64,000 nucleotides of DNA from Patescibacteria group bacterium (GCA_041737595.1 JBGSRK010000005.1:1610-65609); one strand, 5' to 3'; counted from the first letter of the stretch, positions 15,640-58,038 are shown. Translations and numbers: made by a program. The notes: generated by a model from the letters alone, not told the origin.

Positions 15640-18600
15640 ATGTACGACATTTTAACAGAAATTTTTAAGGGAGTTGTATCTGTGATACTTTATTTTTGGT
15701 GGCTTATAGCCGCTTTTTTATTTTATATTGCTTGGCAGAATAAAAGAAAAACTTCTTTTGTATCTAAAACAGAACATATTATTATGGAGGTTAAGATTAC
15801 CAAAACTAATGATAAAGATCCAACTGCAGCAGAAATGATGTTTGCTACCTTACATGGTATATTAAAGCCAAGGACAGAACTACTTAAAAAGGGAGAGATA
15901 CAAGAACACATTAGTTTTGAAATTATTTCAGATACTACATCTATTCGTTTTTATGTTTGGACACCAAAACACCTAAAGGATTTTGTTGAAGGACAAATTT
16001 ATGCTCAGTATCCATCTGCCGAAATCCGCGAAGTTGAAGATTATACAAAAAGTATAGATCCTTCTGATAAAAATATTAATGTTACTTCAGCCGATATTGT
16101 ATTAACAAAAGACGATTATCTTCCTATTAAATCTTTTAATAATTTTAAAGTAGACCCACTTGCTGGAATTACTGGGGTTTTATCTAAACTAGATGAAAAA
16201 GGTGAACAAATTTGGATTCAAATACTTGCAAGGCCAGTTTCTGATGAATGGAAAAGAAGAGGGCAAAACTGGGCTGCAAAGAAAAAAGGTGAAGCCGTTT
16301 CGGGGTTTGGTTTTACGGAATCTTTTGGTAAGTGGATTATAGAGGCCCCTCTAAAATTAATAACTGATTTAATTAAAGTAGCAATAGTTGGGGGACTTGA
16401 CCCAGATAGTGATTCAAAAACCAAATTATCACCAGACACAGAAAGTATGATTTCTGCTATACAGGAAAAATCAGAAAAATTAGCATTTAAAGTGAGAATC
16501 AGAGCTATATATTTAAGTCCAAATTCAGTTAAATCAAGTGAAAGAATGCAAGCTGTTTTTGGAGCTTTCAAGCAATTTAATACAACAAATTTAAATGGAT
16601 TTAAAGGTAAGCATATAGCAAATGATAGATCTTATCTTAAAGAATATAATAATAGATTATTTTTAAAAGGTGGGTTTCATTTAAATATAGAAGAACTTGC
16701 ATCTATTTATCATCTACCACATACCTCAGTCGAAACACCCAATATTAAATGGACTTCCTCAAAAGTTGGCGAACCACCAACTAATTTACCAATTGAAGAA
16801 ACTACCCCAATAGAAGATTTAGCACTTTTTGCTGAAACAAATTTTAGAAGTCATAAGGAAGTTTTTGGTATAAAAAGAGATGACAGACGTAGACATATGT
16901 ATATTATTGGTAAATCTGGTATGGGGAAAACTAAACTTCTAGAAAATTTAATTAATAACGATATTAAAAGAGGAGAAGGGGTTGCGCTTATGGACCCTCA
17001 TGGTGATTATTATGCAGATGTTATTAATAAAATCCCTGAGGAAAGAATAAAGGATGTAGTGCTTTTTGATCCTTCTGATGTAAGTAATCCGATAGCTTTT
17101 AATCCAATGGAAGTAATTGATGAAAATTTTAAAGTACAGATAGCATCTGGTATTGTTGGCACTTTCAAAAAAATATTTGGGACATCTTGGGGCCCTCGAC
17201 TTGAATATATTTTAAATTATACTGTCCTTGCTCTTTTGGATACTCCTGATACAACTATTCTAGGTATTGTGCGGGTTTTAACAGATAAAAATTATAGAAA
17301 AATTATTGTAGATAATATTCAAGATCCAGTTGTAAAAAAATTCTGGACTACTGAGTTTGCTTCATATAATGAAAAATTCGCTACAGAGGCTATAGCACCT
17401 ATCTTAAATAAGGTTGGACAATTTGTTGCAAATTCATTAATTCGAAATGTTATTGGTCAACCTAAATCTAGTTTTAATTTAAGAGAACTAATGGATAATA
17501 AAAAAATAATACTTATTAATCTTTCTACTGGTAAGGTAGGGGAGACTAATGCTGCACTTTTAGGTTCTTTAATGATTACTGCTATTCAGCTTGCTGCTAT
17601 GAGTAGAGCAGATATTGCAGAAGAAAATCGGGCTGACTATTATCTATATGTTGATGAGTTCCAAAATTTCGCAACTGAATCATTTAAAACTATTCTTTCA
17701 GAGGCAAGAAAATATCGACTCAATCTTGTTATGGCTAATCAATATATTGCGCAGATGGAGGATACGGGTGTTAAGGACGCAATTTTTGGTAATGTAGGTA
17801 CAATTATTACTTTTAGGGTTGGGGCACAAGACGCTGATGAGCTCGTAAAGGAATTTAGCCCACCATTTGAAGCTCAAGATTTAATTAATCTTGCAAGACA
17901 AAACATCTATATCCGTATGACTATTGATGGGCAATCAGAAACTGCATTCTCTGGAGTAACACTTACTGTATCCCCAGACGTAACTGGAAACTTTGATAAA
18001 ATTATTGAACACTCAAGAAAAATGTATACCCGTCCAAGAGAGGAAGTAGAAGCTGAGGTAGCTGCAAAATCAGGTATGCAAATTAATGCCAAGCCATCTA
18101 CCGCACCAGGGATGGAAAACGCTGTAGTTGAAATAGTAACATCAGATACTAAAATTACTGCAACAGAAGAAGGAGATGTTTTTGAAGCACCATTAGTAAA
18201 AAAAGTTAATAATAAATCAAAGAACACAAGCCCTTCAAAAGAAAATTTAGTAAACATTATAAAAGAAAATACTGCTCACTTAGAAAAACCAAAAAAAGAT
18301 AAAGATAAAGAAGAATTAAAATTAGAACAAAAAAATGATAAAAATATTATTAAAGGGGATAAAGAGGGTAATATTAAGAGTGAAATAAAGAAAGATAATT
18401 TTCTTATTAAAGATAAAATAGATAAAGAAACCTTATCTGAAATATTAAAATCTGTAGTCAAACCTACAGAAGATTTAAATAATAATAATTCAATAAAAAT
18501 AGATGCAAAAAATGATGAGACAAATAGGGGAGACGAAAAAAAAGAAAATGTTATAAAAAATAATATTATTAATAATACCCCCAAAGATAAAACCGAGAAC

Positions 18601-18753
18601 CATGTTTCCCCTACTTCAAAAAATGAAAAAATAATTACTTCGGATAATTTTAAAGATATAAAAACTATACATCCAAATGAAACCGTAAAAGTATTAGAAC
18701 GAACTGGCGAACCCCAAAAAATTAATGAAGGTGACATAATTAAATTTAAATAA
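15640..18753 (+). CDS. Membrane-anchored FtsK/HerA/TraG-VirD4-superfamily P-loop ATPase with long Lys/Glu/Asn-rich C-terminal tail
   Basis: N-terminal TM (ILYFWWLIAAFLFYIAW); Walker A HMYIIGKSGMGKTKLLENL; Walker B YLYVDEFQNF. About 240 aa of low-complexity K/E/N-rich tail. RBS GGGGAA, adjacent to the upstream gene. Confidence 0.65.
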   Translation: MYDILTEIFKGVVSVILYFWWLIAAFLFYIAWQNKRKTSFVSKTEHIIMEVKITKTNDKDPTAAEMMFATLHGILKPRTELLKKGEIQEHISFEIISDTTSIRFYVWTPKHLKDFVEGQIYAQYPSAEIREVEDYTKSIDPSDKNINVTSADIVLTKDDYLPIKSFNNFKVDPLAGITGVLSKLDEKGEQIWIQILARPVSDEWKRRGQNWAAKKKGEAVSGFGFTESFGKWIIEAPLKLITDLIKVAIVGGLDPDSDSKTKLSPDTESMISAIQEKSEKLAFKVRIRAIYLSPNSVKSSERMQAVFGAFKQFNTTNLNGFKGKHIANDRSYLKEYNNRLFLKGGFHLNIEELASIYHLPHTSVETPNIKWTSSKVGEPPTNLPIEETTPIEDLALFAETNFRSHKEVFGIKRDDRRRHMYIIGKSGMGKTKLLENLINNDIKRGEGVALMDPHGDYYADVINKIPEERIKDVVLFDPSDVSNPIAFNPMEVIDENFKVQIASGIVGTFKKIFGTSWGPRLEYILNYTVLALLDTPDTTILGIVRVLTDKNYRKIIVDNIQDPVVKKFWTTEFASYNEKFATEAIAPILNKVGQFVANSLIRNVIGQPKSSFNLRELMDNKKIILINLSTGKVGETNAALLGSLMITAIQLAAMSRADIAEENRADYYLYVDEFQNFATESFKTILSEARKYRLNLVMANQYIAQMEDTGVKDAIFGNVGTIITFRVGAQDADELVKEFSPPFEAQDLINLARQNIYIRMTIDGQSETAFSGVTLTVSPDVTGNFDKIIEHSRKMYTRPREEVEAEVAAKSGMQINAKPSTAPGMENAVVEIVTSDTKITATEEGDVFEAPLVKKVNNKSKNTSPSKENLVNIIKENTAHLEKPKKDKDKEELKLEQKNDKNIIKGDKEGNIKSEIKKDNFLIKDKIDKETLSEILKSVVKPTEDLNNNNSIKIDAKNDETNRGDEKKENVIKNNIINNTPKDKTENHVSPTSKNEKIITSDNFKDIKTIHPNETVKVLERTGEPQKINEGDIIKFK

Positions 18754-18790
18754 AATAATATTATTTATTAATAACTAGTTAATTTTAGAT

Positions 18791-18814
18791 ACAGCCTAAG
18801 AGGGCTGTTTTTTA
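18791..18814 (+). terminator. Rho-independent terminator
   Basis: ACAGCC-TAAGAG-GGCTGT hairpin followed by TTTTTTA. Confidence 0.7.
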
Positions 18815-19022
18815 TTAATTAAATATTATATAACATAAATAGATTAAGAATGGTAAGGGAGAAAGAGCAGAGTATAAATATATATAAATAATTAATTATT
18901 AAAATTTTGGCTTTACAATGGGAGATACTAGCAGTCACATAAACTAATAAATAGTTAATGTCGCACAATATATCTTATGCGACTTTCTTTATATGGAGTT
19001 AATGAGTAAAAGAGTATGGGCT

Positions 19023-19805
19023 TTACTTATAAAATATCTTACCCTTTACCCTCATGTCTATATATTCTATATTCTTTGTTCCATCTTTCTTGGCTTCTTC
19101 AAGAACCCTTATTAAATTTGATAATTGTGTATCAATATCTTTAGATGAATCCAAGTAAACAGTCCAGCCATCAGTACTAAGTACATGAACATCTGATAAT
19201 ATATCAAATATATTAATTCTTGCTATCTTGGTGCCAGTAACACCTTCAAATTTTTCGTATATTATTTTAATAAAATTAATAAAGGTAGGGGATGCCACTC
19301 TCTCCCCGATTTTTGGTTTAATATTTGCTGCATCAAATATTTCAGGTAAATTTTCATCGGCCGCTTCTCCCAAAACTTCTCCCCTATCAGAAATAAAATA
19401 TTTATCCCCTGCCGAAATCCAGATTATAGAAGGTTTAGTTTCTTTAATAATCACTAATATAGTATCAGGGTATTTTTTCTTAATTATTATATCCTCGATT
19501 TGAGGGTCCCCCGAAAGAACATTTGTAAGATGATTTTTTGGGAAAAATAAAATATTACTTTTTATAAAATTGTCTTCGGTTTCTTCTAAAATTAATGATT
19601 TTACCAATTCAGGGTGATCATAACCTTCGACATTATAATTATTAATATTTAATAATCCGGAGAAAAATATCAAATATCCGGATCCAATTATAAGTAGAAA
19701 AATAATTAAAATATAAAACCAACTTAGAGAAATGGGTGATTTGTCTTCTTTTGTTCTAGAATGAACTAAATTATTATTATTTGATATTTTGTCTAATCTG
19801 CTCAA
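19023..19805 (-). CDS. ftsQ: Cell division protein FtsQ/DivIB-like (POTRA)
   Basis: Single N-terminal TM followed by a POTRA-like region; located at the end of the dcw cluster after murG. Confidence 0.6.
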   Translation of the reverse strand: MSRLDKISNNNNLVHSRTKEDKSPISLSWFYILIIFLLIIGSGYLIFFSGLLNINNYNVEGYDHPELVKSLILEETEDNFIKSNILFFPKNHLTNVLSGDPQIEDIIIKKKYPDTILVIIKETKPSIIWISAGDKYFISDRGEVLGEAADENLPEIFDAANIKPKIGERVASPTFINFIKIIYEKFEGVTGTKIARINIFDILSDVHVLSTDGWTVYLDSSKDIDTQLSNLIRVLEEAKKDGTKNIEYIDMRVKGKIFYK

Positions 19806-20946
19806 TTGTATCTTCCCCTGTTTTTAAAATAACATTTGCAACATCGTCAGATGAATGTAGATTAGCCCATTTATTCATTTTACTCGCCATGTCATTAAGC
19901 TCATTTTGATTTTCAAAAAGATATTTAACTTGATGTAATAATTTTTTAGAGGTTATGGTTTCCTCTTTAAAAATATAGGCAGCCCCTGATCTAGAAAGAA
20001 CTCTTGCATTTTCAAACTGATGGCTACCGGCAGATGAACCAAGTGGTATAAATATAGAAGGTATATTATATGAGGCTAATTCAAATATTACATTACTCCC
20101 CGCTCTACCAATATATAAATCAGTGCTAGCATAAATATCTGCTATTTCTGTTGTTATAAAACCATATACCTTAATATTCTTTTTAAGTTCTTCATCTAGC
20201 TCAGATACCCTAAAATCAATTATTTGATAATCTCTATCCCCTGCTACCCAAATTAATTGGAAATCTCTTAATATTTCTTCAAGTTTTTCCATTATTAATT
20301 CATTCACAAATAAGGAACCCTGAGACCCCCCTAATATTAATATTGTTTTTTTATTATTTGAAAAACCAATTTCAGAAAGGTACCGCTCTTTTCTCCCCCC
20401 TAAAATATCTTCTCTAATTGGATTACCAGTTTCTATAATTTTTTCTGGGTCAATTTCTTTATAATTATTTATAGGGAACGTAACACATACTTTTTCTGCA
20501 AATTTTGCCATTTTTCTATTTGCAAGACCCATCACAATATCAGATTCGTGAATTACAAGTGGTATTTTTAATAATTTTGCAGCAATTCCAACTGGGAGAC
20601 TAACATAGCCACCTTTTGCAAAAATTACATCTGGTTTTTCATGTGAAATAATTTTTTTTGCTTCAAATATCCCTTCTATAAAATTAAAAAAATCTTTTAT
20701 ATTTGAAATAATTGTCGTAGGGTCAATAATGTTTAAAATTTTTGATTTATGATACCGACGGAATTTACCTGCAGAAATACCATAATATTTGATACCCATT
20801 TTAGGGATCAATCTTCCTTCCATACCAAATTTTGATCCAATAAATAGTATATTACTATTTGGGTCTATTTTTCTTATTGAATTAATTACGGCTAAAGTTG
20901 GTAATGTATGACCACCAGTTCCGCCGCCTGATACTGCGATTTTCAC
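19777..20946 (-). CDS. murG: UDP-N-acetylglucosamine--N-acetylmuramyl-(pentapeptide) pyrophosphoryl-undecaprenol N-acetylglucosamine transferase
   Basis: MKIAVSGGGTGGHTLPTLAV N-terminus is canonical MurG. Confidence 0.9.
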   Translation of the reverse strand: MKIAVSGGGTGGHTLPTLAVINSIRKIDPNSNILFIGSKFGMEGRLIPKMGIKYYGISAGKFRRYHKSKILNIIDPTTIISNIKDFFNFIEGIFEAKKIISHEKPDVIFAKGGYVSLPVGIAAKLLKIPLVIHESDIVMGLANRKMAKFAEKVCVTFPINNYKEIDPEKIIETGNPIREDILGGRKERYLSEIGFSNNKKTILILGGSQGSLFVNELIMEKLEEILRDFQLIWVAGDRDYQIIDFRVSELDEELKKNIKVYGFITTEIADIYASTDLYIGRAGSNVIFELASYNIPSIFIPLGSSAGSHQFENARVLSRSGAAYIFKEETITSKKLLHQVKYLFENQNELNDMASKMNKWANLHSSDDVANVILKTGEDTIEQIRQNIK

Positions 20947-26520: not shown

Positions 26521-27462
26521 TTATAATTTCTCTGCTACTCTTAATTTTGCGCTTCTCGCCCGTGGATTTTCTTTAATTTCGTTATCTGATGCTACAACTG
26601 GTTTTTTAGTTATTTTTTTTAAAACTGGAGTTGTTTCACAAATACACTTTGGAAAATCTGGTGGGCATACACATGCGATTGACCGAGAATCAATAAATCT
26701 TTTCACGATTCGGTCCTCTAGAGAATGAAACGAAATAATCGCCATTCTCCCGCCCCCCTTGAGGATCTCGACCATCTGAGGTAGCGCCGACTGAAGAACA
26801 TCTAGTTCTCCATTAACTTCGATTCGAAGCGCTTGAAAGACCTTGGTAGCTGGGTCTATTTTTGTTTTTCTTTTTATCACCCTCCTTACTACCTCAGACA
26901 GTTGATCGGTCCATATAATCCGACTCTGACATCTTGTTTTTACAATCTCTTTTGCAACTCCTCTTGCTTGTGGTTCTTCTCCATATTTTCTGAAAATACT
27001 TATTAGTTCGTCTTCACTGTAAGTATTAACCACATCTTCAGCAGTAAGATCCTTTGTTTGATCCATTCTCATATCAAGCTTTGCTCTTTTTGAAAATGAA
27101 AAACCTCTTTCTGCTTCATCAAATTGCATCGAAGAAACACCTATATCTGCTAAAATACCATCCACCTTTGTAAAACCGTTATCTTTTGCGATTTTAGATA
27201 TATCTGCAAAATTACCATGTACATAGGTGATATTTCTGCCTTTAAGAACCTTTTTTGCAATTTCTAACGCATTCTTATCCTGATCAATTGCTAAGATCTT
27301 ACCGGTTTCTCCAATTTTTTCCGAAAGTTCAAGTGTGTGCCCCCCGGCACCAACGGTAGCATCAATATAAATACCACCAACTTTCGGTTCTAAGAGATTG
27401 ATTGTTTGTTGTAAAAGTACGCTTTTATGCATTTTTCTTCCCCCTGTCGAATTTACGTTCAT
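26521..27462 (-). CDS. rsmH: 16S rRNA (cytosine1402-N4)-methyltransferase
   Basis: DATVGAGGHT SAM-binding motif and other RsmH/MraW blocks. The true start is probably the internal Met (MHKSVLL). Confidence 0.9.
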   Translation of the reverse strand: MNVNSTGGRKMHKSVLLQQTINLLEPKVGGIYIDATVGAGGHTLELSEKIGETGKILAIDQDKNALEIAKKVLKGRNITYVHGNFADISKIAKDNGFTKVDGILADIGVSSMQFDEAERGFSFSKRAKLDMRMDQTKDLTAEDVVNTYSEDELISIFRKYGEEPQARGVAKEIVKTRCQSRIIWTDQLSEVVRRVIKRKTKIDPATKVFQALRIEVNGELDVLQSALPQMVEILKGGGRMAIISFHSLEDRIVKRFIDSRSIACVCPPDFPKCICETTPVLKKITKKPVVASDNEIKENPRARSAKLRVAEKL

Positions 27463-27482
27463 TTAATTCACGTAAATCTTAT

Positions 27483-27697
27483 AGACAGGTAGATAGCAGT
27501 CAGCCATTAAAGGACTTGAGAGAGATTTCTTCAAGTCATGATCGACACCCCCTGGTACGATCATATATTTGTTTTTCACCCGAAAATTCGGGTTTAAGAA
27601 CAATTGGGTAGGATTTTGTTGGGCTTATTCCGCCAAAGGCGGATAAGGTGGATATTTGTTTTTATTTAGGTACATGCTGATTGCTATCTACCTGTCT
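27483..27697. repeat. 215-bp element bounded by 22-bp near-perfect terminal inverted repeats (MITE-like or structured RNA)
   Basis: AGACAGGTAGATAGCAGTCAGC at 27483-27504 and its reverse complement (21/22) at 27676-27697. The interior has at least four stem-loops. It sits in a 420-nt mraZ-rsmH gap. Confidence 0.5.
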
Positions 27698-27884
27698 GCG
27701 ACTAAAGTCGCAAGACTTGTCATCCTGAACGCAGTGAAGGATCTAGATTCTTCGCTCCGCTCAGAATGACAATGTTATTTATTTTTCAAGTTACTTTTCC
27801 CTGATTTTTTTAAAAAAAGGTTTTGTTTTTGTTTTTGTTTAAGTCCGGCTTTTTGCTCCGGCTCCCCCTCGAAAATTATATTAT

Positions 27885-28316
27885 TTAAATCCCAAGGTTC
27901 TCTAATTCTTCGGCAATACTTGATGCATCACCCTCTGTCTTCGTCTTATATTCTTGCCAGTTTTTCTGACTCCATATTTCTACTCTTTTAAATAAACCAG
28001 CAACAACAACTATTCCCGAAATACCGGCGTATTCACGTAAGTATGCTGGAATATTAATCCGTCCCTGTTTATCAATAATAACCTGAGTGGCCCCAGCAAG
28101 CATTAACCTCGCAAATGCTCTTGATGCAGCTTGTGTAAGTGGTAAATTAGCAAGTTTTTCAGCCAATACTTCCCATTCTTCATTTGTGTATACAGAAAGA
28201 CAGTTGTCTAAACCTTTTGTTACAACTGCACCTCCTGCCATTTTGGCTCTAAATTTGACCGGCATTGCCAGTCTTCCTTTTTCATCTATTGAATGATTGT
28301 ATTCACCTATAAACAT
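27885..28316 (-). CDS. mraZ: Transcriptional regulator MraZ
   Basis: MFIGEYNHSIDEKGRLAMP N-terminus; duplicated MraZ fold. Confidence 0.9.
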   Translation of the reverse strand: MFIGEYNHSIDEKGRLAMPVKFRAKMAGGAVVTKGLDNCLSVYTNEEWEVLAEKLANLPLTQAASRAFARLMLAGATQVIIDKQGRINIPAYLREYAGISGIVVVAGLFKRVEIWSQKNWQEYKTKTEGDASSIAEELENLGI

Positions 28317-28326
28317 TTTTTATTCT

Positions 28327-28352
28327 CCACTTTCCCCCACTTCATTCCACTT
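28327..28352 (-). promoter_or_regulatory. Three AAGTGG direct repeats at 10-bp spacing in the mraZ leader (putative MraZ operator), adjacent to a TATAAT -10 box at 28359-28364
   Basis: CCACTT (minus-strand AAGTGG) at 28327, 28337 and 28347. MraZ is known to bind short G-rich direct repeats in its own promoter region. Confidence 0.55.
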
Positions 28353-28426: not shown

Positions 28427-28454
28427 AAAAAGTGGCTCTATAGAGCCACTTTTT
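28427..28454 (-). terminator. Palindromic (bidirectional) Rho-independent terminator after rplA
   Basis: AAAAAGTGGCTC-TATA-GAGCCACTTTTT perfect hairpin with flanking A/T runs. Confidence 0.7.
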
Positions 28455-31219: not shown

Positions 31220-31293
31220 TGGCAGGGGCGGAAGGGATCGAACCCTCAATAAAGGTTTTGGAGACCTTCGTTATACCATTTAACTACGCCCCT
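31220..31293 (-). tRNA. tRNA-Trp (anticodon CCA), CCA 3' end encoded
   Basis: Cloverleaf traced by hand: 7-bp acceptor stem, anticodon loop CUCCAAA, T-loop TTCGATC. Confidence 0.85.
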
Positions 31294-31330
31294 ATGTCAC
31301 AAAAATCGACAGATTCTTGTGATAAGCAAA

Positions 31331-31519
31331 CTATTTATTAACTTTACCGCTGTTAATTTTCATCTCTTTATGAATAGTGGATTTTTTACAAGTGTTACAA
31401 AATTTCTTCATTTCAAGTTTTTCAGTTGTATTTTTAACGTTCTTTTTAGTAACATAGTTTCTATTATTACATTCTGAACATTTAAGCCAAATTTGTAATC
31501 TGTTATCTTTTTTTGCCAT
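31331..31519 (-). CDS. rpmG: 50S ribosomal protein L33 (zinc-binding type)
   Basis: CSECNNRNY...CNTCKK zinc-ribbon motifs; 62 aa. Confidence 0.85.
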
Positions 31520-31638
31520 TTTTATCCTTTCTTATTTTTTTAATTTATTAATCAAAATCTGTTGATTTTGGTTAAAGAGGAAGAATTACGATAAGGTGAA
31601 GCATCTTTGATGCGCAACCTGTAAGTAAATTCTTTCGA

Positions 31639-31713
31639 TGGAGCCCATGGGCGGAATTGAACCGCCGACCTACTCCTTACCATGGAGTTGCTCTACCCCT
31701 GAGCTACATGGGC
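31639..31713 (-). tRNA. tRNA-Thr (anticodon GGT)
   Basis: Acceptor GCCCATG/CATGGGC; anticodon stem ACTCC/GGAGT with loop ATGGTAA; T-arm GGCGG-TTCAATT-CCGCC; CCA encoded. Confidence 0.85.
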
Positions 31714-31833
31714 AAGATGGTGAGGAGAGAGTCGCCGCTCGCTCCGACTTGCGGTCCGGAGCGCTACACTCAGGAAAGCTCTAAGTATTCGCTTTCTTTC
31801 TCGCGCCCGTTCGACGCCATTTTTTCATAGTTA

Positions 31834-31919
31834 TGGTGGCGAGAGAGGGAGTCGAACCCCCGAAGGCGTAAGCCAGCAGATGTACAGTCTGCCCCGTTTG
31901 ACCACTTCGGTATCTCGCC
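31834..31919 (-). tRNA. tRNA-Tyr (anticodon GTA), long variable arm
   Basis: Acceptor GGCGAGA/TCTCGCC; anticodon loop CTGTACA; 14-nt variable arm; T-arm GGGGG-TTCGACT-CCCTC; CCA encoded. Confidence 0.85.
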
Positions 31920-32107
31920 GTATTAGAAACTATTTTAGGATTATAGCATGAAAATATCATATCTTCATTCGTTCGCAATCCCTACCCTTTCAAAATACCA
32001 TCAATTTTTTGATAAACAGTGAAAATCTGTCGATTTTTACTGCAAAGGAAGAATAACGATAAACCGTAAAAATTTTAATTTTGAAGGTTTTTAGTTTATT
32101 CTGACGA

Positions 32108-32182
32108 TGGAGCCACCTGTCGGACTCGAACCGACGACCGACTGTTTACAAAACAGTTGCTCTACCACTGAGCTAAGGTGGC
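32108..32182 (-). tRNA. tRNA-Thr (anticodon TGT)
   Basis: Acceptor GCCACCT/AGGTGGC; anticodon stem ACTGT/ACAGT with loop TTTGTAA; T-arm GTCGG-TTCGAGT-CCGAC; CCA encoded. Confidence 0.85.
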
Positions 32183-53336: not shown

Positions 53337-54071
53337 TTATTTCCATTCCATTGTGGCCATCATTTTTTCAAAATAATTTGTAATTTCTGCTACAACTAAA
53401 TCTGTAGTACTTGTGCTTTCTGAATGGAAAAAATAATTATGGTTATTTTGAATTTGATAACCCGACCCAGTTTTAGGTATTGTAGAAATTGAATAACCAT
53501 TAAGATTAGCATTGTCACACATTAAATTTTCACCACTATTTAATGAATTATCTATCTCTTTTTTATTTGAAAGGATGAGTTTATTTGCCAATATTTCAGT
53601 TGAATAAGTAATATTCTTTTTAACACAAGTTCCTCCTCGACCAAATATTTCGTCCATATTTAATGAAATTGCATATTTTTTTTCCTGGTTATCAAAGATA
53701 ACATTATCAATAGAAAAAACATTTGAACCTACATAAGTACTACCACTGCTTGTCTCATTTTCACTAACAACAAAGGAGCTCGGGTATTTAATAGAAAAAT
53801 TATATTTAGTGCTTGTATACGTTTTCCAATCTTTCATTTCATCATTCGAAACAGACGAAGATGTCGTTTTATTAAAATTTAGTTTAGTAGAATAGTCTTC
53901 GTTATAATTTCTTGATCCTAAATACCAATATATTCCATAACCTATTAACGTTACAACAATTGCAAGAATTGAAAAAGCCGCAATAGTTTCTAAATGAAGA
54001 TTTTTCTTATTTATATCTTTTTCAACCTCTTTTTTAAATTCATCAACTTGTTTTTTCTCTTTTTCTGTCAT
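53337..54071 (-). CDS. Hypothetical membrane-anchored Ser/Asn-rich extracytoplasmic protein, cotranscribed with the ABC transporter
   Basis: N-terminal K/E-rich segment, then a TM (AAFSILAIVVTLIGYGIYWYL), then an S/T/N-rich domain. Confidence 0.5.
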   Translation of the reverse strand: MTEKEKKQVDEFKKEVEKDINKKNLHLETIAAFSILAIVVTLIGYGIYWYLGSRNYNEDYSTKLNFNKTTSSSVSNDEMKDWKTYTSTKYNFSIKYPSSFVVSENETSSGSTYVGSNVFSIDNVIFDNQEKKYAISLNMDEIFGRGGTCVKKNITYSTEILANKLILSNKKEIDNSLNSGENLMCDNANLNGYSISTIPKTGSGYQIQNNHNYFFHSESTSTTDLVVAEITNYFEKMMATMEWK

Positions 54072-54200
54072 AATTATCCCCTTTTTTGTTTTTTGTATTA
54101 ACCAACAAATATATTATCACTCTTGTCAATAAATATCAAACCAAAGCGCTTACTTAATAAGTTAATACTTTACTAATGTACATTAGTAAAGTGCTTTTTT

Positions 54201-54245
54201 ATAAAAAGCAATAGACCGGCCTCGCGAAATCGCGAAGACCGGTCT
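54201..54245 (-). terminator. Compound hairpin terminator at the downstream edge of GC island B
   Basis: AGACCGGCC-TCGCGAAATCGCGA-GACCGGTCT nested hairpin, then a U-run on the minus strand. Confidence 0.6.
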
Positions 54246-54252
54246 TTACTTG

Positions 54253-54543
54253 TTATACCTCATACACGCACATCGTTACTTCGCCCAGACAAGCTGGTGC
54301 TTCAGCATGATATATCTTGCCTGTAGCGTGCACTTCGATTCGATAATGTAGAGTTACTCCTTCAAGATTACCGGAAAGAAGTGTGAACGACCCCTTAATT
54401 GAATCAAGAAGATTGCGCTCATAGAGAGCATCAAGCAACTCTCTTCTAACTCGAATCGTTCCATTTGTTGTCTCTTTACCATCGGCCCGATAGACCTTTG
54501 TGAAAAGTGGTTCCCTGTTGGAAACCGCAGCATCTGTCCCCAT
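54253..54543 (-). CDS. Small ORFan protein B4 (96 aa) in high-GC island B
   Basis: RBS AAGGGGG 6 nt before the ATG; own promoter TTGACG-N17-TATTAT at 54622-54650; GC about 45-48% versus about 30% background. Confidence 0.5.
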   Translation of the reverse strand: MGTDAAVSNREPLFTKVYRADGKETTNGTIRVRRELLDALYERNLLDSIKGSFTLLSGNLEGVTLHYRIEVHATGKIYHAEAPACLGEVTMCVYEV

Positions 54544-54621
54544 CTCGTTACCCCCTTAAACTGATGGAATGAGTTTTTTCGACATATGCTGTGGTGCTTG
54601 AGGCATTTAACAAGCAAAACA

Positions 54622-54650
54622 ATAATAACTTTAATTTTGAGCCACGTCAA
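54622..54650 (-). promoter_or_regulatory. Promoter TTGACG-N17-TATTAT for ORF B4
   Basis: -35 at 54645-54650 and -10 at 54622-54627 on the minus strand. Confidence 0.45.
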
Positions 54651-54669
54651 GCCAATATTATATTAACTT

Positions 54670-54702
54670 AGAAAAACACCCTAGGTATATTTCAACCTAG
54701 GG
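54670..54702 (-). terminator. Internal terminator after the B1-B2-B3 operon
   Basis: CCCTAGG-N10-CCTAGGG hairpin followed by UGUUUUU on the minus strand. Confidence 0.55.
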
Positions 54703-54725
54703 TAGTTGCTCAACCAACGAGGCTT

Positions 54726-55031
54726 TCACCGATGTATCCTTGGATCAATTTGGGAAGTGAGTTCAAAATCAAAATACCTTATCTTCCCCTCCCCTTCACA
54801 AACAGTCCGGTAGACACAGTTGAACCTTCGCCCCTTGTTTCCAATTTCGAAGACTCCAACCGAAGTCTGAAACGCCTCAGCCCGGGAACCAAGTCGAATC
54901 CCGAACTTAGCCAACGTTCTACGTGCCTCGGCTACTATTTCGGTACACGATTGGCATGGATCTTTCCCGACAAGAGGGACCGTAATGATGCCATAGTTGG
55001 TCCTTCTATAACCAGAAGTGTCGCACTCCAT
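54726..55031 (-). CDS. Small ORFan Cys-containing protein B3 (about 101 aa) in high-GC island B
   Basis: Start at MECD with a perfect RBS GAGGAGG 6 nt upstream, 9 nt after the B2 stop. The track ORF extends to 55055 from a less likely start. Confidence 0.5.
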   Translation of the reverse strand: MECDTSGYRRTNYGIITVPLVGKDPCQSCTEIVAEARRTLAKFGIRLGSRAEAFQTSVGVFEIGNKGRRFNCVYRTVCEGEGKIRYFDFELTSQIDPRIHR

Positions 55032-55042
55032 CTTGAGCCTCC

Positions 55043-55330
55043 TCACGTCGCCCATTGCTTGAGTATGACATTACCATCCTTGAGTGAACATGAATACACC
55101 GACATAAGGATGCCGGTTCGGGAATGAACCTGAATTCTGACAACTTGTGATAGATATCCACTTCGTGGGACGATGTTCTTATTGACATCGAATGCACGAA
55201 ATGACGTATCGCACTCGCTATCAGGAAGGCCATACCCATTGGAACGAATACGACGAAGTTCAGTGAAGACACACTCGAGCATATCTTCGTCAGGGCAACC
55301 TATGAGCTCAATGTTTATAGGCTCATTCAT
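55043..55330 (-). CDS. Small ORFan protein B2 (about 95 aa) in high-GC island B
   Basis: ATG overlaps the B1 stop in an ATGA coupling; RBS GAGGTGG upstream. The track ORF extends to 55366. Confidence 0.5.
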   Translation of the reverse strand: MNEPINIELIGCPDEDMLECVFTELRRIRSNGYGLPDSECDTSFRAFDVNKNIVPRSGYLSQVVRIQVHSRTGILMSVYSCSLKDGNVILKQWAT

Positions 55331-55605
55331 GCTGCCACCTCTTCGATACCCGAGATAGTATACCAAGCTTTCACCTGGTAAGTACTATCTGTCTTTTCGA
55401 CACGAGCTTCCACCTTTTGACCATCCGTATTAGTAAAATCAATACGAATGATTTTCTTGATGACGATTTTGACACTTACTGTCTTAAAACCGTAAACAAG
55501 AAGTAGAAGCTTCTCACAAGCAAGAGTCAGGGTACATATTTCTTTTGCGGTTGGACGTCCAGCTGAGGACTCAATCGCAAGATCAAGAATGTTATTCACA
55601 TCCAT
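55327..55605 (-). CDS. Small ORFan protein B1 (about 92 aa) in high-GC island B
   Basis: Start at MDVNN with a GGGGGG RBS. The longer track ORF (to 55650) would overlap the extended -10 element TGGTATATA at 55651-55659. Confidence 0.45.
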   Translation of the reverse strand: MDVNNILDLAIESSAGRPTAKEICTLTLACEKLLLLVYGFKTVSVKIVIKKIIRIDFTNTDGQKVEARVEKTDSTYQVKAWYTISGIEEVAA

Positions 55606-55687
55606 TTTGAGCCCCCCTTGGGTTCCTACCGTCTCTGACGTTATCGGCATTATATACCAAAAAAACTAATTTTAAAAGAATAAAAAA

Positions 55688-55717
55688 CAAAAAAAGCAGC
55701 TTTCGCTGCTTTTTTTG
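55688..55717 (-). terminator. Bidirectional terminator separating rpsJ from island B
   Basis: AGCAGC-TTTC-GCTGCT hairpin flanked by an A-run and a T-run. Confidence 0.65.
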
Positions 55718-55762
55718 AATAGTTCTAGACCATCCGCCCATTGGCGAATAAAGTCTTCGGTT

Positions 55763-56083
55763 TTACATTTTTATTTCGATATCAACACCCGCTGGTAGAG
55801 AAATATTCATTAGACTATCAATTGTCTTCGCATTTGGTTCAAGAATATCTATAAGTCTTTTATGAACTCTCATTTCAAACTGTTCTCGGGCATTTTTATC
55901 AACATTCGAAGCCCTAAGCACTGTTATTGGAGTTCGATCAGTTGGAAGCGGAATCGGACCAGAAATTTTTGAACCACTTCTTTGCGCGGTTTCAATTATT
56001 TGTTTAACAGACTGGTCAATGATCTTATGATCATATGCTTTCAGTTTAATTCTGATTCTTTGAGGTTTCTTTTCTTCTACCAT
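55763..56083 (-). CDS. rpsJ: 30S ribosomal protein S10
   Basis: [17 protein letters not shown]-terminal block. Confidence 0.95.
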
Positions 56084-56112
56084 TTTTTGTAAGGTTCCTT
56101 GCGTTTATCGCT

Positions 56113-57291
56113 TTATTTTGTAATCTTTGTTACTATACCCGCACCAACTGTTCTACCACCTTCTCGGATAGCGAACTTAAGACCTTGGTCCATAGCAATT
56201 GGTTGCATAAGTTTAACATTGAAAGTGATTTTATCACCTGGCATTACCATTTCGGTACCTGCAGGCAGTTCTACTTCTCCTGTAACATCTGTTGTTCGAA
56301 TATAGAATTGAGGTTTGTATCCTTTAAAGAATGGTGTATGTCGTCCACCTTCTTCTTTTGTTAGGATATAAACTTCTGCTTCAAATTCTGTGTGAGGTGT
56401 AATTGAACCTGGTTTTGCAAGAACCATACCACGTTCGATATCATCTTTTTCAATACCACGTAGTAAAAGTCCTGCGTTATCACCAGCTTGACCTTGGTCA
56501 AGTTGTTTTTTGAACATTTCTACACCAGTAACAACAGTTTTTCTTGTTTCTTTTATCCCAACAATTTCTACTTCTTCATTGATTTTAATAATACCTGATT
56601 CAATACGACCCGTAGCAACTGTTCCACGACCTTTAATCGAGAAAACATCTTCTACCGGCATAAGGAAAGGTTTATCTAAATCACGAACTGGTTCTGGGAT
56701 AAAATCATCAAGAGCTTTAACAAGTTCAAGTATAGATTCTTCATATTTAGCATCGCCTTCAAGAGCTTTAAGAGCTGAACCACGAATAATTGGAGCATTG
56801 TCTCCATCAAAATCATATTTTGAAAGCAATTCTCTAATTTCCATTTCAACAAGATCAAGCATTTCTTCATCGGCTACCATGTCACATTTATTCATAAAAA
56901 CAACAATTTTAGCTACACCAACTTGGTTAGCAAGCAAAATGTGTTCACGAGTTTGTGGCATTGGACCATCTGTTGCAGCTACAACTAATATAGCTCCGTC
57001 CATCTGAGCTGCGCCGGTAATCATGTTTTTAACATAATCTGCATGACCCGGACAGTCAACGTGTGCATAATGTCTTTTATCTGATTCATATTCAACGTGA
57101 GCGGTAGAAATAGTTATACCACGTTCACGTTCTTCAGGGGCTTTATCAATATTTTCGAAGGCAGTAAATTCTGCTTTACCGTCTTTTGAAAGAACTTTAG
57201 TAATAGCAGCTGTCAAAGTTGTTTTCCCATGGTCTACGTGACCTATAGTACCGACATTGACATGAGGTTTTGAACGATCAAATGTTGCCAT
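56113..57291 (-). CDS. tuf: Elongation factor Tu
   Basis: [23 protein letters not shown] and NKCD motifs. Confidence 0.97.
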
Positions 57292-57424
57292 TTGGGGTCC
57301 TCCTTTAGATTAACTTTATAGTTTAGACAATAAAACTTATCCACAATAAGTGGAATTGGTAACTAACTTTTTGTGTTACTTCGCTATTCTATTATAATTT
57401 GAGTTGATTTGCAAGTATTTTTAT

Positions 57425-57456
57425 CTAAAATGACAGGACCCCGCCGGTTGGCGGGG
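57425..57456 (-). terminator. GC-rich hairpin terminator at the downstream edge of island A
   Basis: ACCCCGCC-GGTT-GGCGGGGT stem; a weak U-tract follows on the minus strand. Confidence 0.5.
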
Positions 57457-57478
57457 TCAATGGACAAGAAGAGGATCA

Positions 57479-57656
57479 TTCAGTCGAGGTGCATGTATGA
57501 AAAGGCTGCGTCACGTTCTTCGCGAAAAGTGCGTACCTTCGGCGAAACCAGTGATGCCAACCAAATCGGAAATTCGATCAGCATACACATAATCGCGCTG
57601 AGTACGACGAGAGTGATCAAAACCGAATCGATCACCCATTCTTTGAATCTAAACAT
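57479..57656 (-). CDS. Small hydrophobic protein A2 (58 aa), second gene of high-GC island A
   Basis: Hand-translated MFRFKEWVIDSVLITLVVLSAIMCMLIEFPIWLASLVSPKVRTFREERDAAFSYMHLD. RBS GGAGG 5 nt upstream; starts 8 nt after the A1 stop; below the track size cutoff. Confidence 0.45.
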
Positions 57657-57666
57657 AGCGGCCTCC

Positions 57667-57987
57667 CTATCCTAGGCCCATTTCGTTGAGCTCGTCGAGA
57701 GTCGAGTTGTAGTCGGGCTCAAAGTTCGGTTTGATGAAACGGCCATGAATTCGAGATTCTTCGAGTTCCCTCACAAGCATATCATGTGCGGGCTTGTTGT
57801 GACATTGAGTACAAACGCTCGGCGACTCAAAGTCACAGTCGATACAGATCGCCGGATCAGGCCTGCCGGAGTTCTTTGCTCGCAACAGACGGATGACTCC
57901 GCCTGCCACAACTACTACAAAAGCGACCAAAAGAACCAAAACGATGGCACCTTCGGTTGTCGAGATAAGACCAATGAACCTCCCCAT
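57667..57987 (-). CDS. Membrane-anchored zinc-ribbon protein A1 (106 aa), first gene of high-GC island A
   Basis: N-terminal TM (AIVLVLLVAFVVVVAGGVIRLL), then CIDC-x8-CTQC; strong RBS GGGAGG; GC about 50%. Confidence 0.5.
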   Translation of the reverse strand: MGRFIGLISTTEGAIVLVLLVAFVVVVAGGVIRLLRAKNSGRPDPAICIDCDFESPSVCTQCHNKPAHDMLVRELEESRIHGRFIKPNFEPDYNSTLDELNEMGLG

Positions 57988-58038
57988 GTTTCCTCCCTTA
58001 GGTTCGCACGGATTTACACCGTGAATATTAATACGATT

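Follow-up and report, generated by a model that had tools for sequence, protein, structure and literature searches.

The 64,000-nt stretch of DNA from a Patescibacteria group bacterium analysed here (GCA_041737595.1 JBGSRK010000005.1:1610-65609; hereafter the window, with positions counted from its first letter) contains a hairpin-rich element of 215 nt in the spacer between mraZ and rsmH. Judged from comparison with related loci, the element very probably encodes a functional RNA, and on balance it probably represents the core of a clade-specific structured leader RNA in the division and cell wall (dcw) mRNA of one lineage of Patescibacteria, which would regulate rsmH and the downstream dcw genes in cis. 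The spacer comprises 452 nt from the mraZ stop codon to the rsmH ATG (27433-27884), rather than the 420 nt given in an earlier interpretation of the bare DNA sequence (the sequence-only reading), and has a G+C content of 0.38, with 0.405 in the 215-nt core and 0.33 in the whole window. As that reading assumed, mraZ and rsmH can be found directly adjacent: in the relative L020 (50% RsmH identity, different gene neighbourhood), the mraZ-rsmH spacer is 8 nt long and has no match to the element.

The element is bounded by the 22-nt inverted repeat described in the sequence-only reading, AGACAGGTAGATAGCAGTCAGC (27483-27504) and GCTGATTGCTATCTACCTGTCT (27676-27697), whose arms are 21/22 (95%) complementary. 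At up to three mismatches, these two arms are the only matches to the repeat in the 64-kb window, with 0 expected by chance. The 215-nt element folds far better than shuffled sequences on both strands (z = -10.4 and -10.8). All four interior hairpins pointed out earlier are present and predicted to form (GACTTGA/TCAAGTC, ATGATCG/CGATCAT, ACCCGA/TCGGGT and CCGCC/GGCGG, designated P5, P4, P3 and P2, respectively), and the three further hairpins likewise exist, namely P0 at 27698-27711, a palindrome with 28-nt arms of 82% complementarity at 27717-27772, and a small hairpin at approximately 27843-27864.

P1, the closing helix formed by the two repeat arms, comprises exactly 22 bp without indels in 14/14 main-group members and, with 22 nt facing 22 nt in a fixed register, needs no alignment. 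Compensatory changes occur in 14 of its 20 modelled pairs, and 97% of cells are paired. Position 17 or 18 of P1 is never Watson-Crick in any member (A-C or C-A in 11, C-U in 2 and G-A in 1) and constitutes a conserved imperfection, not a hidden G-U pair. RNAalifold recovered P1 and P5 with 11 compensatory pairs. In a model-based alignment of 15 members, 92.5% of cells contain standard pairs, 28/44 pairs changed on both sides, and the covariation score was 0.385 compared to 0.151 for shuffles (0/500 shuffles reached 0.385), figures that lean towards structure because the sequences were aligned by fitting them to the model and are related. Sliding the partners by one to three columns reduced pairing to 28-44%. 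A covariance model built from 14 members scored its seed members at 157-199 bits and picked up two unseeded divergent members, L018 (E = 7e-8) and L141 (E = 8.5e-13), while no other match was obtained in the window or related loci and 0 matches were found in 0.9 Mb of unrelated viral contigs. The core is thus conserved and combines helices supported by covariation with unpaired nucleotides that are conserved as well, as expected of a riboswitch or cis-regulatory leader.

For comparison, mraZ-rsmH regions of relatives were chosen by RsmH similarity, resulting in a sample of 16 genomes or contigs; the closest RsmH relatives carry the label Patescibacteria and one relative is named 'Candidatus Saccharibacteria'. 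The element was present in the mraZ-rsmH spacer, at the same site and on the operon strand, in 16/16 relatives with RsmH identities from 100% to 52% (carriers listed: L002, L003, L005, L006, L009-L014, L016-L019 and L141). The spacers of relatives with at least 52% RsmH identity range from 229 to 692 nt and each contain the element, and no presence/absence polymorphism among close relatives was detected among the 16 (RsmH 52-100%). Genome and metagenome collections were additionally scanned with two invariant blocks. Among 185,579 GTDB species representatives, the invariant block was found in 2 genomes, with one exact match each, both between mraZ and rsmH, and the metagenome scan returned three true copies, all upstream of rsmH at mraZ-rsmH, plus one chance match. 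The further repeat copies that the sequence-only reading had suggested looking for were therefore not found, with one element in the window and the invariant block once per genome in the two carriers, and the comparison of relatives it likewise proposed showed the structure to be conserved.

The element is thus single-copy, syntenic and old, the opposite of a miniature inverted-repeat transposable element (MITE). It shares with MITEs the terminal inverted repeats around a short non-coding unit, here repeats of 22 bp bounding 215 bp, and a truly dispersed repeat (the 27717-27772 palindrome) lies only 20 nt away. A MITE or other mobile-element remnant is nevertheless effectively refuted by the single copy, the same locus in every relative down to 52% RsmH identity, the lack of a target duplication and arms that co-vary, with compensatory changes in 14/20 pairs, rather than decaying. 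In addition, the internal single strands of the element are more conserved at the nucleotide level than the flanking coding DNA. Reading the flanks confirmed that a target-site duplication is lacking, as there is no direct repeat between the ...CTTAT that precedes AGACAGG and the GCGAC that follows CCTGTCT; the downstream GACAGG copy corresponds to the interior of the left arm rather than to the flank. Of the two readings offered from the sequence, a structured RNA embedded in the dcw transcript is retained in its cis-regulatory form, and the MITE-like remnant is abandoned.

The neighbouring palindrome (27717-27772, 56 nt) is an inserted copy of a dispersed repeat in the variable part of the leader, separate from the conserved RNA. 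At least 120 IMG/VR stretches contain its arm motif TCATYCTGARCGNAGYGAAGRATC, compared to about 0.02 expected by our own estimate, and the dispersed unit, TGTCATYCTGAGCGnAGCGAAGRATCT(C), is found as single units or as inverted pairs with variable loops. Among the spacers, the palindrome is restricted to the window/L001 and L005/L007 (L005 3627-3676); it is absent from L006, whose RsmH is identical to that of L005, and it is where the short-read contigs L001 and L007 break.

Two relatives at 52-54% RsmH identity (L018 1295-1504 and L141 1308-1504) carry a divergent subtype of the RNA, in which P3, the upstream G-run and the A/C repeat are missing. The P5 of this subtype reads AGAAC-loop-GUUCU, and GUUCU occurs once more upstream. 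The 3' strand of its P1 extends into the annotated start codon; in L141, another in-frame ATG is found at the site homologous to the start of the main group.

The element is co-oriented with the operon in all members. On the operon strand, the P1 body contains 11 G-U pairs versus 1 A-C, all modelled pairs together contain 32 G-U versus 14 A-C, and P1 of L018 contains 6-7 G-U pairs. Based on these G-U counts, the co-orientation and the link to the Shine-Dalgarno sequence described below, we assign the functional RNA to the operon strand, which is the minus strand of the window. That the functional transcript is instead an antisense RNA to the dcw operon from the opposite (plus) strand is very improbable. 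The predicted fold of the plus strand is more stable in every member (-94.1 versus -81.8 kcal/mol in the window), and the A-C mismatch at P1 17/18 would become G-U in 11/14 members. However, the added stability reflects spurious G/U-rich pairing among complements of the conserved C/A-rich junctions, and the 17/18 site is C-U or G-A in 3/14 members, which form no pair on either strand. Moreover, the 11 G-U pairs of P1 outside 17/18 would turn into A-C mismatches, the G-U pairs in P1 of L018 also belong to the operon strand, and only on that strand would pairing with the Shine-Dalgarno region in the alternative helix be meaningful.

Described on the operon strand, with all features below on the minus strand of the window, the family has the order P0, P1 5' strand, J1/2, P2, J2/3, P3, a AAAACAAAAAC stretch, P4, P5, P6 and P1 3' strand. 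Of the inner hairpins, P5 is invariant, P2 and P3 vary, and P4 and P6 are optional; the joining regions are single-stranded, invariant and C/A-rich. The core ranges from 183 to 260 nt and the whole leader from 229 to 692 nt. P0 (GCGAC-UUUA-GUCGC, 27698-27711) directly abuts the P1 5' strand (22 nt, 27676-27697); in 12/14 members this hairpin ends 0 nt before P1, with unrelated stem sequences. J1/2 (27644-27675) is a conserved single strand of invariant alignment columns that reads G[CU]ACCU ... AAAAACAAA(U)AUCCACCUU, also written as G[CU]ACCU...AAAAACAAAAAUCCACCUU. P2 (UCCGCC-UUU-GGCGGA, 27629-27643) is a hairpin in every member, each with its own sequence and length, and 6/6 of its modelled pairs changed on both sides. 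The invariant single strand J2/3 (27604-27627), UAAGCCCAAC(A)AAAUCCUACCCAA, is identical in 13 members except for a 1-nt A deletion, still recognisable in L018 and L141, and unique in the window.

P3 (ACCCGA-AUUU-UCGGGU, 27578-27593) was examined through per-sequence folds, and 7/7 of its modelled pairs changed on both sides. The optional P4 (27538-27564), with its ATGATCG/CGATCAT stem, is present in the window, L002, L003, L005, L006 and L012 and absent from L009-L011, L013, L016, L017 and L019. P5 (GACUUGA-AnnAUCUCUC-UCAAGUC, 27513-27537) is identical in stem and loop in 14 members, with 100% of cells paired, and is followed by the P1 3' strand (22 nt, 27483-27504). The invariant C/A-rich joining regions presumably form the functional site, which could be a tertiary fold or the place where a small ligand or a protein binds. 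The P5 loop sequence UCUCUC could pair (6-8 bp with G-U) with the upstream G-run or the Shine-Dalgarno sequence, but the partners are invariant and hence uninformative for covariation; the sole hint of such pairing is that both partners are jointly absent in L018 and L141. A pairing of GCACCUA in J1/2 with the P1 5' strand was rejected, as it showed no co-variation when GGUAG in P1 changed to GAUAG.

Upstream of P0, the spacer contains a conserved 5' module (27812-27868) consisting of the G-run GGGGG(A) (27864-27868), the small hairpin and AAACAAAAACAAAAACAAAACCUUU (27812-27841). This module is (near-)invariant in two alignments of relatives and absent from the divergent L018 and L141, and its A/C repeat occurs once in the window. 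A conserved box, CUUGAAAAnUAAAUA (27776-27790), is found in nearly all spacers including the divergent L018; its frequency in the window at up to two mismatches is no greater than chance. Of two roles considered for this box, that of a competitor for the P5 3' strand was rejected, as the pairing is lost in L013, L019 and L018, and that of a sigma-70 promoter gained no support, as reading of the aligned spacers gave no consistent -35/-10 spacing. A promoter consensus scan gave one weak candidate at the mraZ stop codon (27904-27875) and fewer sites than in shuffles. Small conserved open reading frames in the spacer were also dismissed, with indels that are not multiples of three and no start codon after the G-run.

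In L010-L013 and L019, the G-run after the mraZ stop codon (equivalent to window 27864-27880) is followed by ...UUACAUAAA, similar to the ribosome-binding and start region of rsmH (GGGGGAA..AUGCAUAAA), and this similarity may indicate a vestige of an rsmH start-region duplication from the time when the leader arose. An AT-rich, -10-like hexamer is located 5-10 nt upstream of the conserved G-run. The variable part of the leader contains short tandem TTAGCAG-like units in L010 (~2555-2620) and tandem GTGACAAGAAAC units plus inverted AGTCAC copies in L016 (~2330-2420), which are lineage-specific additions.

The P1 3' strand also links the RNA to the ribosome-binding site of rsmH. Its outer 6-10 nt can form a Watson-Crick helix with a downstream segment in 14/14 main-group members. 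In the window, this segment is GACAGG + GGGGGAAG (27437-27448), which overlaps the rsmH Shine-Dalgarno sequence and is complementary to the outer end CCUGUC of the P1 3' strand. The downstream segment repeats the start of the P1 5' strand, the outer 6-7 nt of which have the same sequence. Five co-varying haplotypes were found: CCUGUC/GACAGG, CCUGCU/AGCAGG, CCUGCUA/UAGCAGG, UCUGCC/GGCAGA and CUAUCUGCCG/CGGCAGAUAG. In 12/14 members, the 3' end of this alternative helix lies 7-11 nt before the AUG, i.e. at the Shine-Dalgarno position, and the helix is often extended by two or three pairs into the purine run. Since the downstream segment fits the P1 3' strand better than the P1 5' strand does in L013 and L016, it is kept for its complementarity and is not a mere duplicate. 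The divergent L018 and L141 have no downstream copy; instead, their P1 3' strand itself ends with ...CUUAUGG at the start region.

As modelled, this anatomy is that of a translational switch made of three strands, the wiring of which is inverted in one subgroup. The role of an anti-Shine-Dalgarno sequence would fall to the outer end of the P1 3' strand, and that of an 'anti-anti-SD' to the outer P1 5' strand, whose pairing with the 3' strand would complete P1 and free the ribosome-binding site. Pairing of the anti-Shine-Dalgarno sequence with the purine-rich copy 7-11 nt upstream of the AUG would, conversely, mask the ribosome-binding site. In the divergent subgroup, where the P1 3' strand enters the start region, P1 would mask it directly. 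The state of the core would then set the translation, and possibly the stability, of rsmH and of ftsL, ftsI, murE and mraY, a control independent of that exerted by MraZ on transcription at the operon promoter. The switch could be triggered by an effector that acts on the core or by processing that removes the P1 5' strand. The data show the conservation, secondary structure and strand of the RNA, its syntenic position as a single copy and the co-variation of the alternative helix; that the RNA regulates, in which direction the switch works and that there is an effector are what we infer.

Translational riboswitches and protein-binding leaders share with this RNA a co-varying multi-stem core closed by P1, with a 3' strand that can pair with the Shine-Dalgarno region. 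ON and OFF variants occur within known riboswitch classes, and one lineage here likewise appears to have inverted logic. In contrast to those systems, P1 is unusually long (22 bp) and predicted to be dominant by 9-12 kcal/mol in most members, and the RNA occupies one locus per genome, inside the operon after mraZ rather than at its 5' end.

Several points weigh against a cis-regulatory leader that acts as a switch. By prediction, full P1 exceeds the alternative helix in stability by 2.8-14 kcal/mol (9-12 in most members, 3-4 in L013, L014 and L019), so the ribosome-binding site would be open by default. No fourth, upstream strand competing for the outer P1 5' strand was found, as the search yielded chance matches of 3-5 nt only. 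The two subgroups would have opposite polarity, with P1 freeing the ribosome-binding site in one and masking it in the other, and the alternative helix is located 74 nt (L014) and 44 nt (L016) from the start codon. Per sequence, 0-16% of composition-preserving shuffles reach the alternative helix, which makes it modestly unlikely by chance, and the case for this helix therefore rests on its recurrence and co-variation. Furthermore, the sample comprises only 16 genomes or contigs, and the shuffle statistics overstate independence because the members are related.

The main rival to this switch, or a step complementary to it, could be excision by RNase III, and processing could itself be the regulatory step. 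The element would then give rise to a non-coding RNA that is stable and acts in trans or in housekeeping, with RNase III cutting P1 and freeing a core of ~190 nt from the operon transcript, an explanation that we regard as possible though distinctly less probable than the leader. In detail, P0 would serve as 3'-terminal protection of the mraZ fragment, and the P1 3' remnant would form a 5'-terminal hairpin of the rsmH mRNA with the downstream copy. The minimal RNase III substrate size is 22 bp, and P1 has exactly this length, two helical turns, throughout the main group. Taking a helix of ~20 bp or more as the measure of an RNase III substrate, P1 is long enough, with one internal non-Watson-Crick site. 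The abutment of P0 against the P1 5' side in 12/14 members, the use of exactly the outer P1 3' strand in the alternative hairpin, and energetics that let this hairpin form only once the 5' strand is removed would all fit such processing, and the invariant junctions and invariant P5 loop look like a functional RNA in its own right. However, the hairpin formed after the cut would, in most members, cover the Shine-Dalgarno sequence, an odd outcome if its role were purely one of protection. Moreover, the cut would fall beside the start region in L018 and L141, and the RNA is strictly bound to one locus without a promoter or terminator of its own. Known RNase III processing stems (rRNA precursors, phage T7 early mRNA and the precursor of the Bacillus small cytoplasmic RNA) resemble this arrangement in that sequences flanking a structured RNA form a helix of about two turns and hairpins sit at the ends that a cut would create. 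They differ in that the RNA enclosed here, whose cleavage is putative, matches no known processed RNA.

An explanation that we consider improbable is a protein-titrating or protein-binding RNA, in which the helices would present C/A-rich single-stranded motifs as multiple sites for an RNA-binding protein such as a KH- or S1-domain protein or Hfq. It would overlap with the leader reading if the protein were the effector. The repeated single-stranded motifs include ACAAAAA (at least 4 times), CACCU/CUACCC and UGAAAA (twice), and several copies of similar motifs are invariant across the family. The (AAC AAA) x3 sequence would fit an A-R-N repeat. A weak CrcZ-like cmscan match at 27799-27838 (E ~1, far below the gathering score) reflects the same composition. 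On the other hand, the analysis yielded no protein candidate, the motifs occur nowhere else in the window, the RNA is located in cis as a single copy, and the upstream A/C repeat is missing in the L018/L141 subgroup.

None of the searches against known families assigned the element. With Rfam 15 at the gathering score, the window and 14 relatives gave only tRNAs elsewhere and no family at the element, and cmscan at E <= 10 across 27300-28000 (701 nt) gave noise only. ARAGORN detected no tRNA or tmRNA, and the enclosed RNA did not match rRNA, signal recognition particle RNA, 6S, RNase P, tRNA or tmRNA. The 6S-like closed stem considered in the sequence-only reading did not hold up: there was no Rfam 6S match at E <= 10, and the fold is a multi-stem junction rather than a rod with a central bubble. 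In the literature searched, no description of this RNA was found. We therefore consider the element an RNA family that is new to description and absent from Rfam 15.

The closest counterpart in position is the mraW motif (RF01746), a candidate cis-regulatory RNA upstream of mraW (= rsmH) found in Actinomycetales only (Weinberg et al. 2010, PMC2864571), where a table rates it as likely to be an RNA and likely to act in cis, with its status as a switch uncertain. Both RNAs are located upstream of mraW/rsmH at the head of the cell-division and cell-wall cluster, with all members of the present family between mraZ and rsmH. In contrast, the mraW model gave no match here (at E <= 10 in 27300-28000, or at the gathering score in the window and 14 relatives), and the present RNA, which is much larger, is closed by a 22-bp helix and differs in its conserved sequences. 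The mraW motif is a positional analogue and not a homologue.

The genes around the element are all encoded on the minus strand in the order nusG, rplK, rplA, mraZ, the 452-nt gap, rsmH, ftsL and a class B penicillin-binding protein. mraZ (27885-28316, minus strand) was called as an open reading frame of 143 amino acids, with orthologues in related loci that contain PF02381 MraZ. rsmH (26521-27432, minus strand) encodes 303 amino acids from the ATG at 27432 and is followed by ftsL and the class B penicillin-binding protein; its start is identical to that of a 100% identical relative protein, P0001. Three AAGTGG copies with an exact 10-bp period are located at 28327-28352 on the minus strand, between a promoter-like site upstream of mraZ (TTGGAA-17-TATACT, 28402-28374) and the mraZ start codon. 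The triplet recurs at a conserved position in 13 loci (relatives listed with it: L002-L006, L009-L013, L016, L017, L019 and L020), and it agrees with known MraZ operators; MraZ is cited as an autoregulator. The triplet looks like the MraZ operator of the dcw promoter. A consensus scan found no terminator-like site in the mraZ-rsmH spacer. Given this result and the putative operator upstream of mraZ, the RNA most likely resides inside the operon transcript and would be transcribed together with mraZ and rsmH.

Between rplA and mraZ, a perfect hairpin, AAAAAGTGGCTC-TATA-GAGCCACTTTTT (28429-28454), is bordered by an A-run and, on the opposite side, by a T-run. This bidirectional terminator-like site probably ends the nusG-rplK-rplA transcript; it was found by reading the sequence and was not listed by the consensus terminator scan. 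A cluster of four tRNAs (31223-32182, minus strand) lies upstream of the secE-nusG-rplK-rplA block, an arrangement shared with L017. At the scale of the window, the cumulative GC skew climbs to ~18-20 kb and then declines. This turn at about 18000-20000 suggests a leading-strand switch, i.e. a replication origin or terminus inside the window. The region 54000-58000 has a G+C content of 0.40-0.41 compared to ~0.33 elsewhere and contains no rRNA or other Rfam match.

It is conceivable, although in our view rather unlikely, that the RNA represents a new class of riboswitch-like sensors confined to one lineage of Patescibacteria, which gates the translation of rsmH-ftsL-ftsI-mur apart from MraZ and is wired in opposite ways in two subgroups. 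Such a sensor might respond, for example, to a precursor of the cell envelope, a second messenger of the nucleotide type or an RNA-binding protein linked to division. A still more speculative option is that the invariant strands containing GCCC and CACCU might imitate the decoding-centre and 3'-end region of 16S rRNA and be bound by RsmH itself for autoregulation.

Patescibacteria (also referred to as the candidate phyla radiation, CPR) form a large radiation of organisms that have tiny genomes and are mostly uncultivated, and to our knowledge almost nothing is known about their gene regulation. Being absent from Rfam 15, the present RNA family is at present invisible to annotation pipelines. 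Its discovery shows that, in a small genome, what looks like a '22-bp terminal inverted repeat' can be a helix that closes a functional RNA and not a transposon scar. As a large, well-supported RNA in the most conserved division and cell-wall operon of Patescibacteria, it is a new candidate for ligand or protein discovery and would offer a rare handle on the post-transcriptional control of their cell division.

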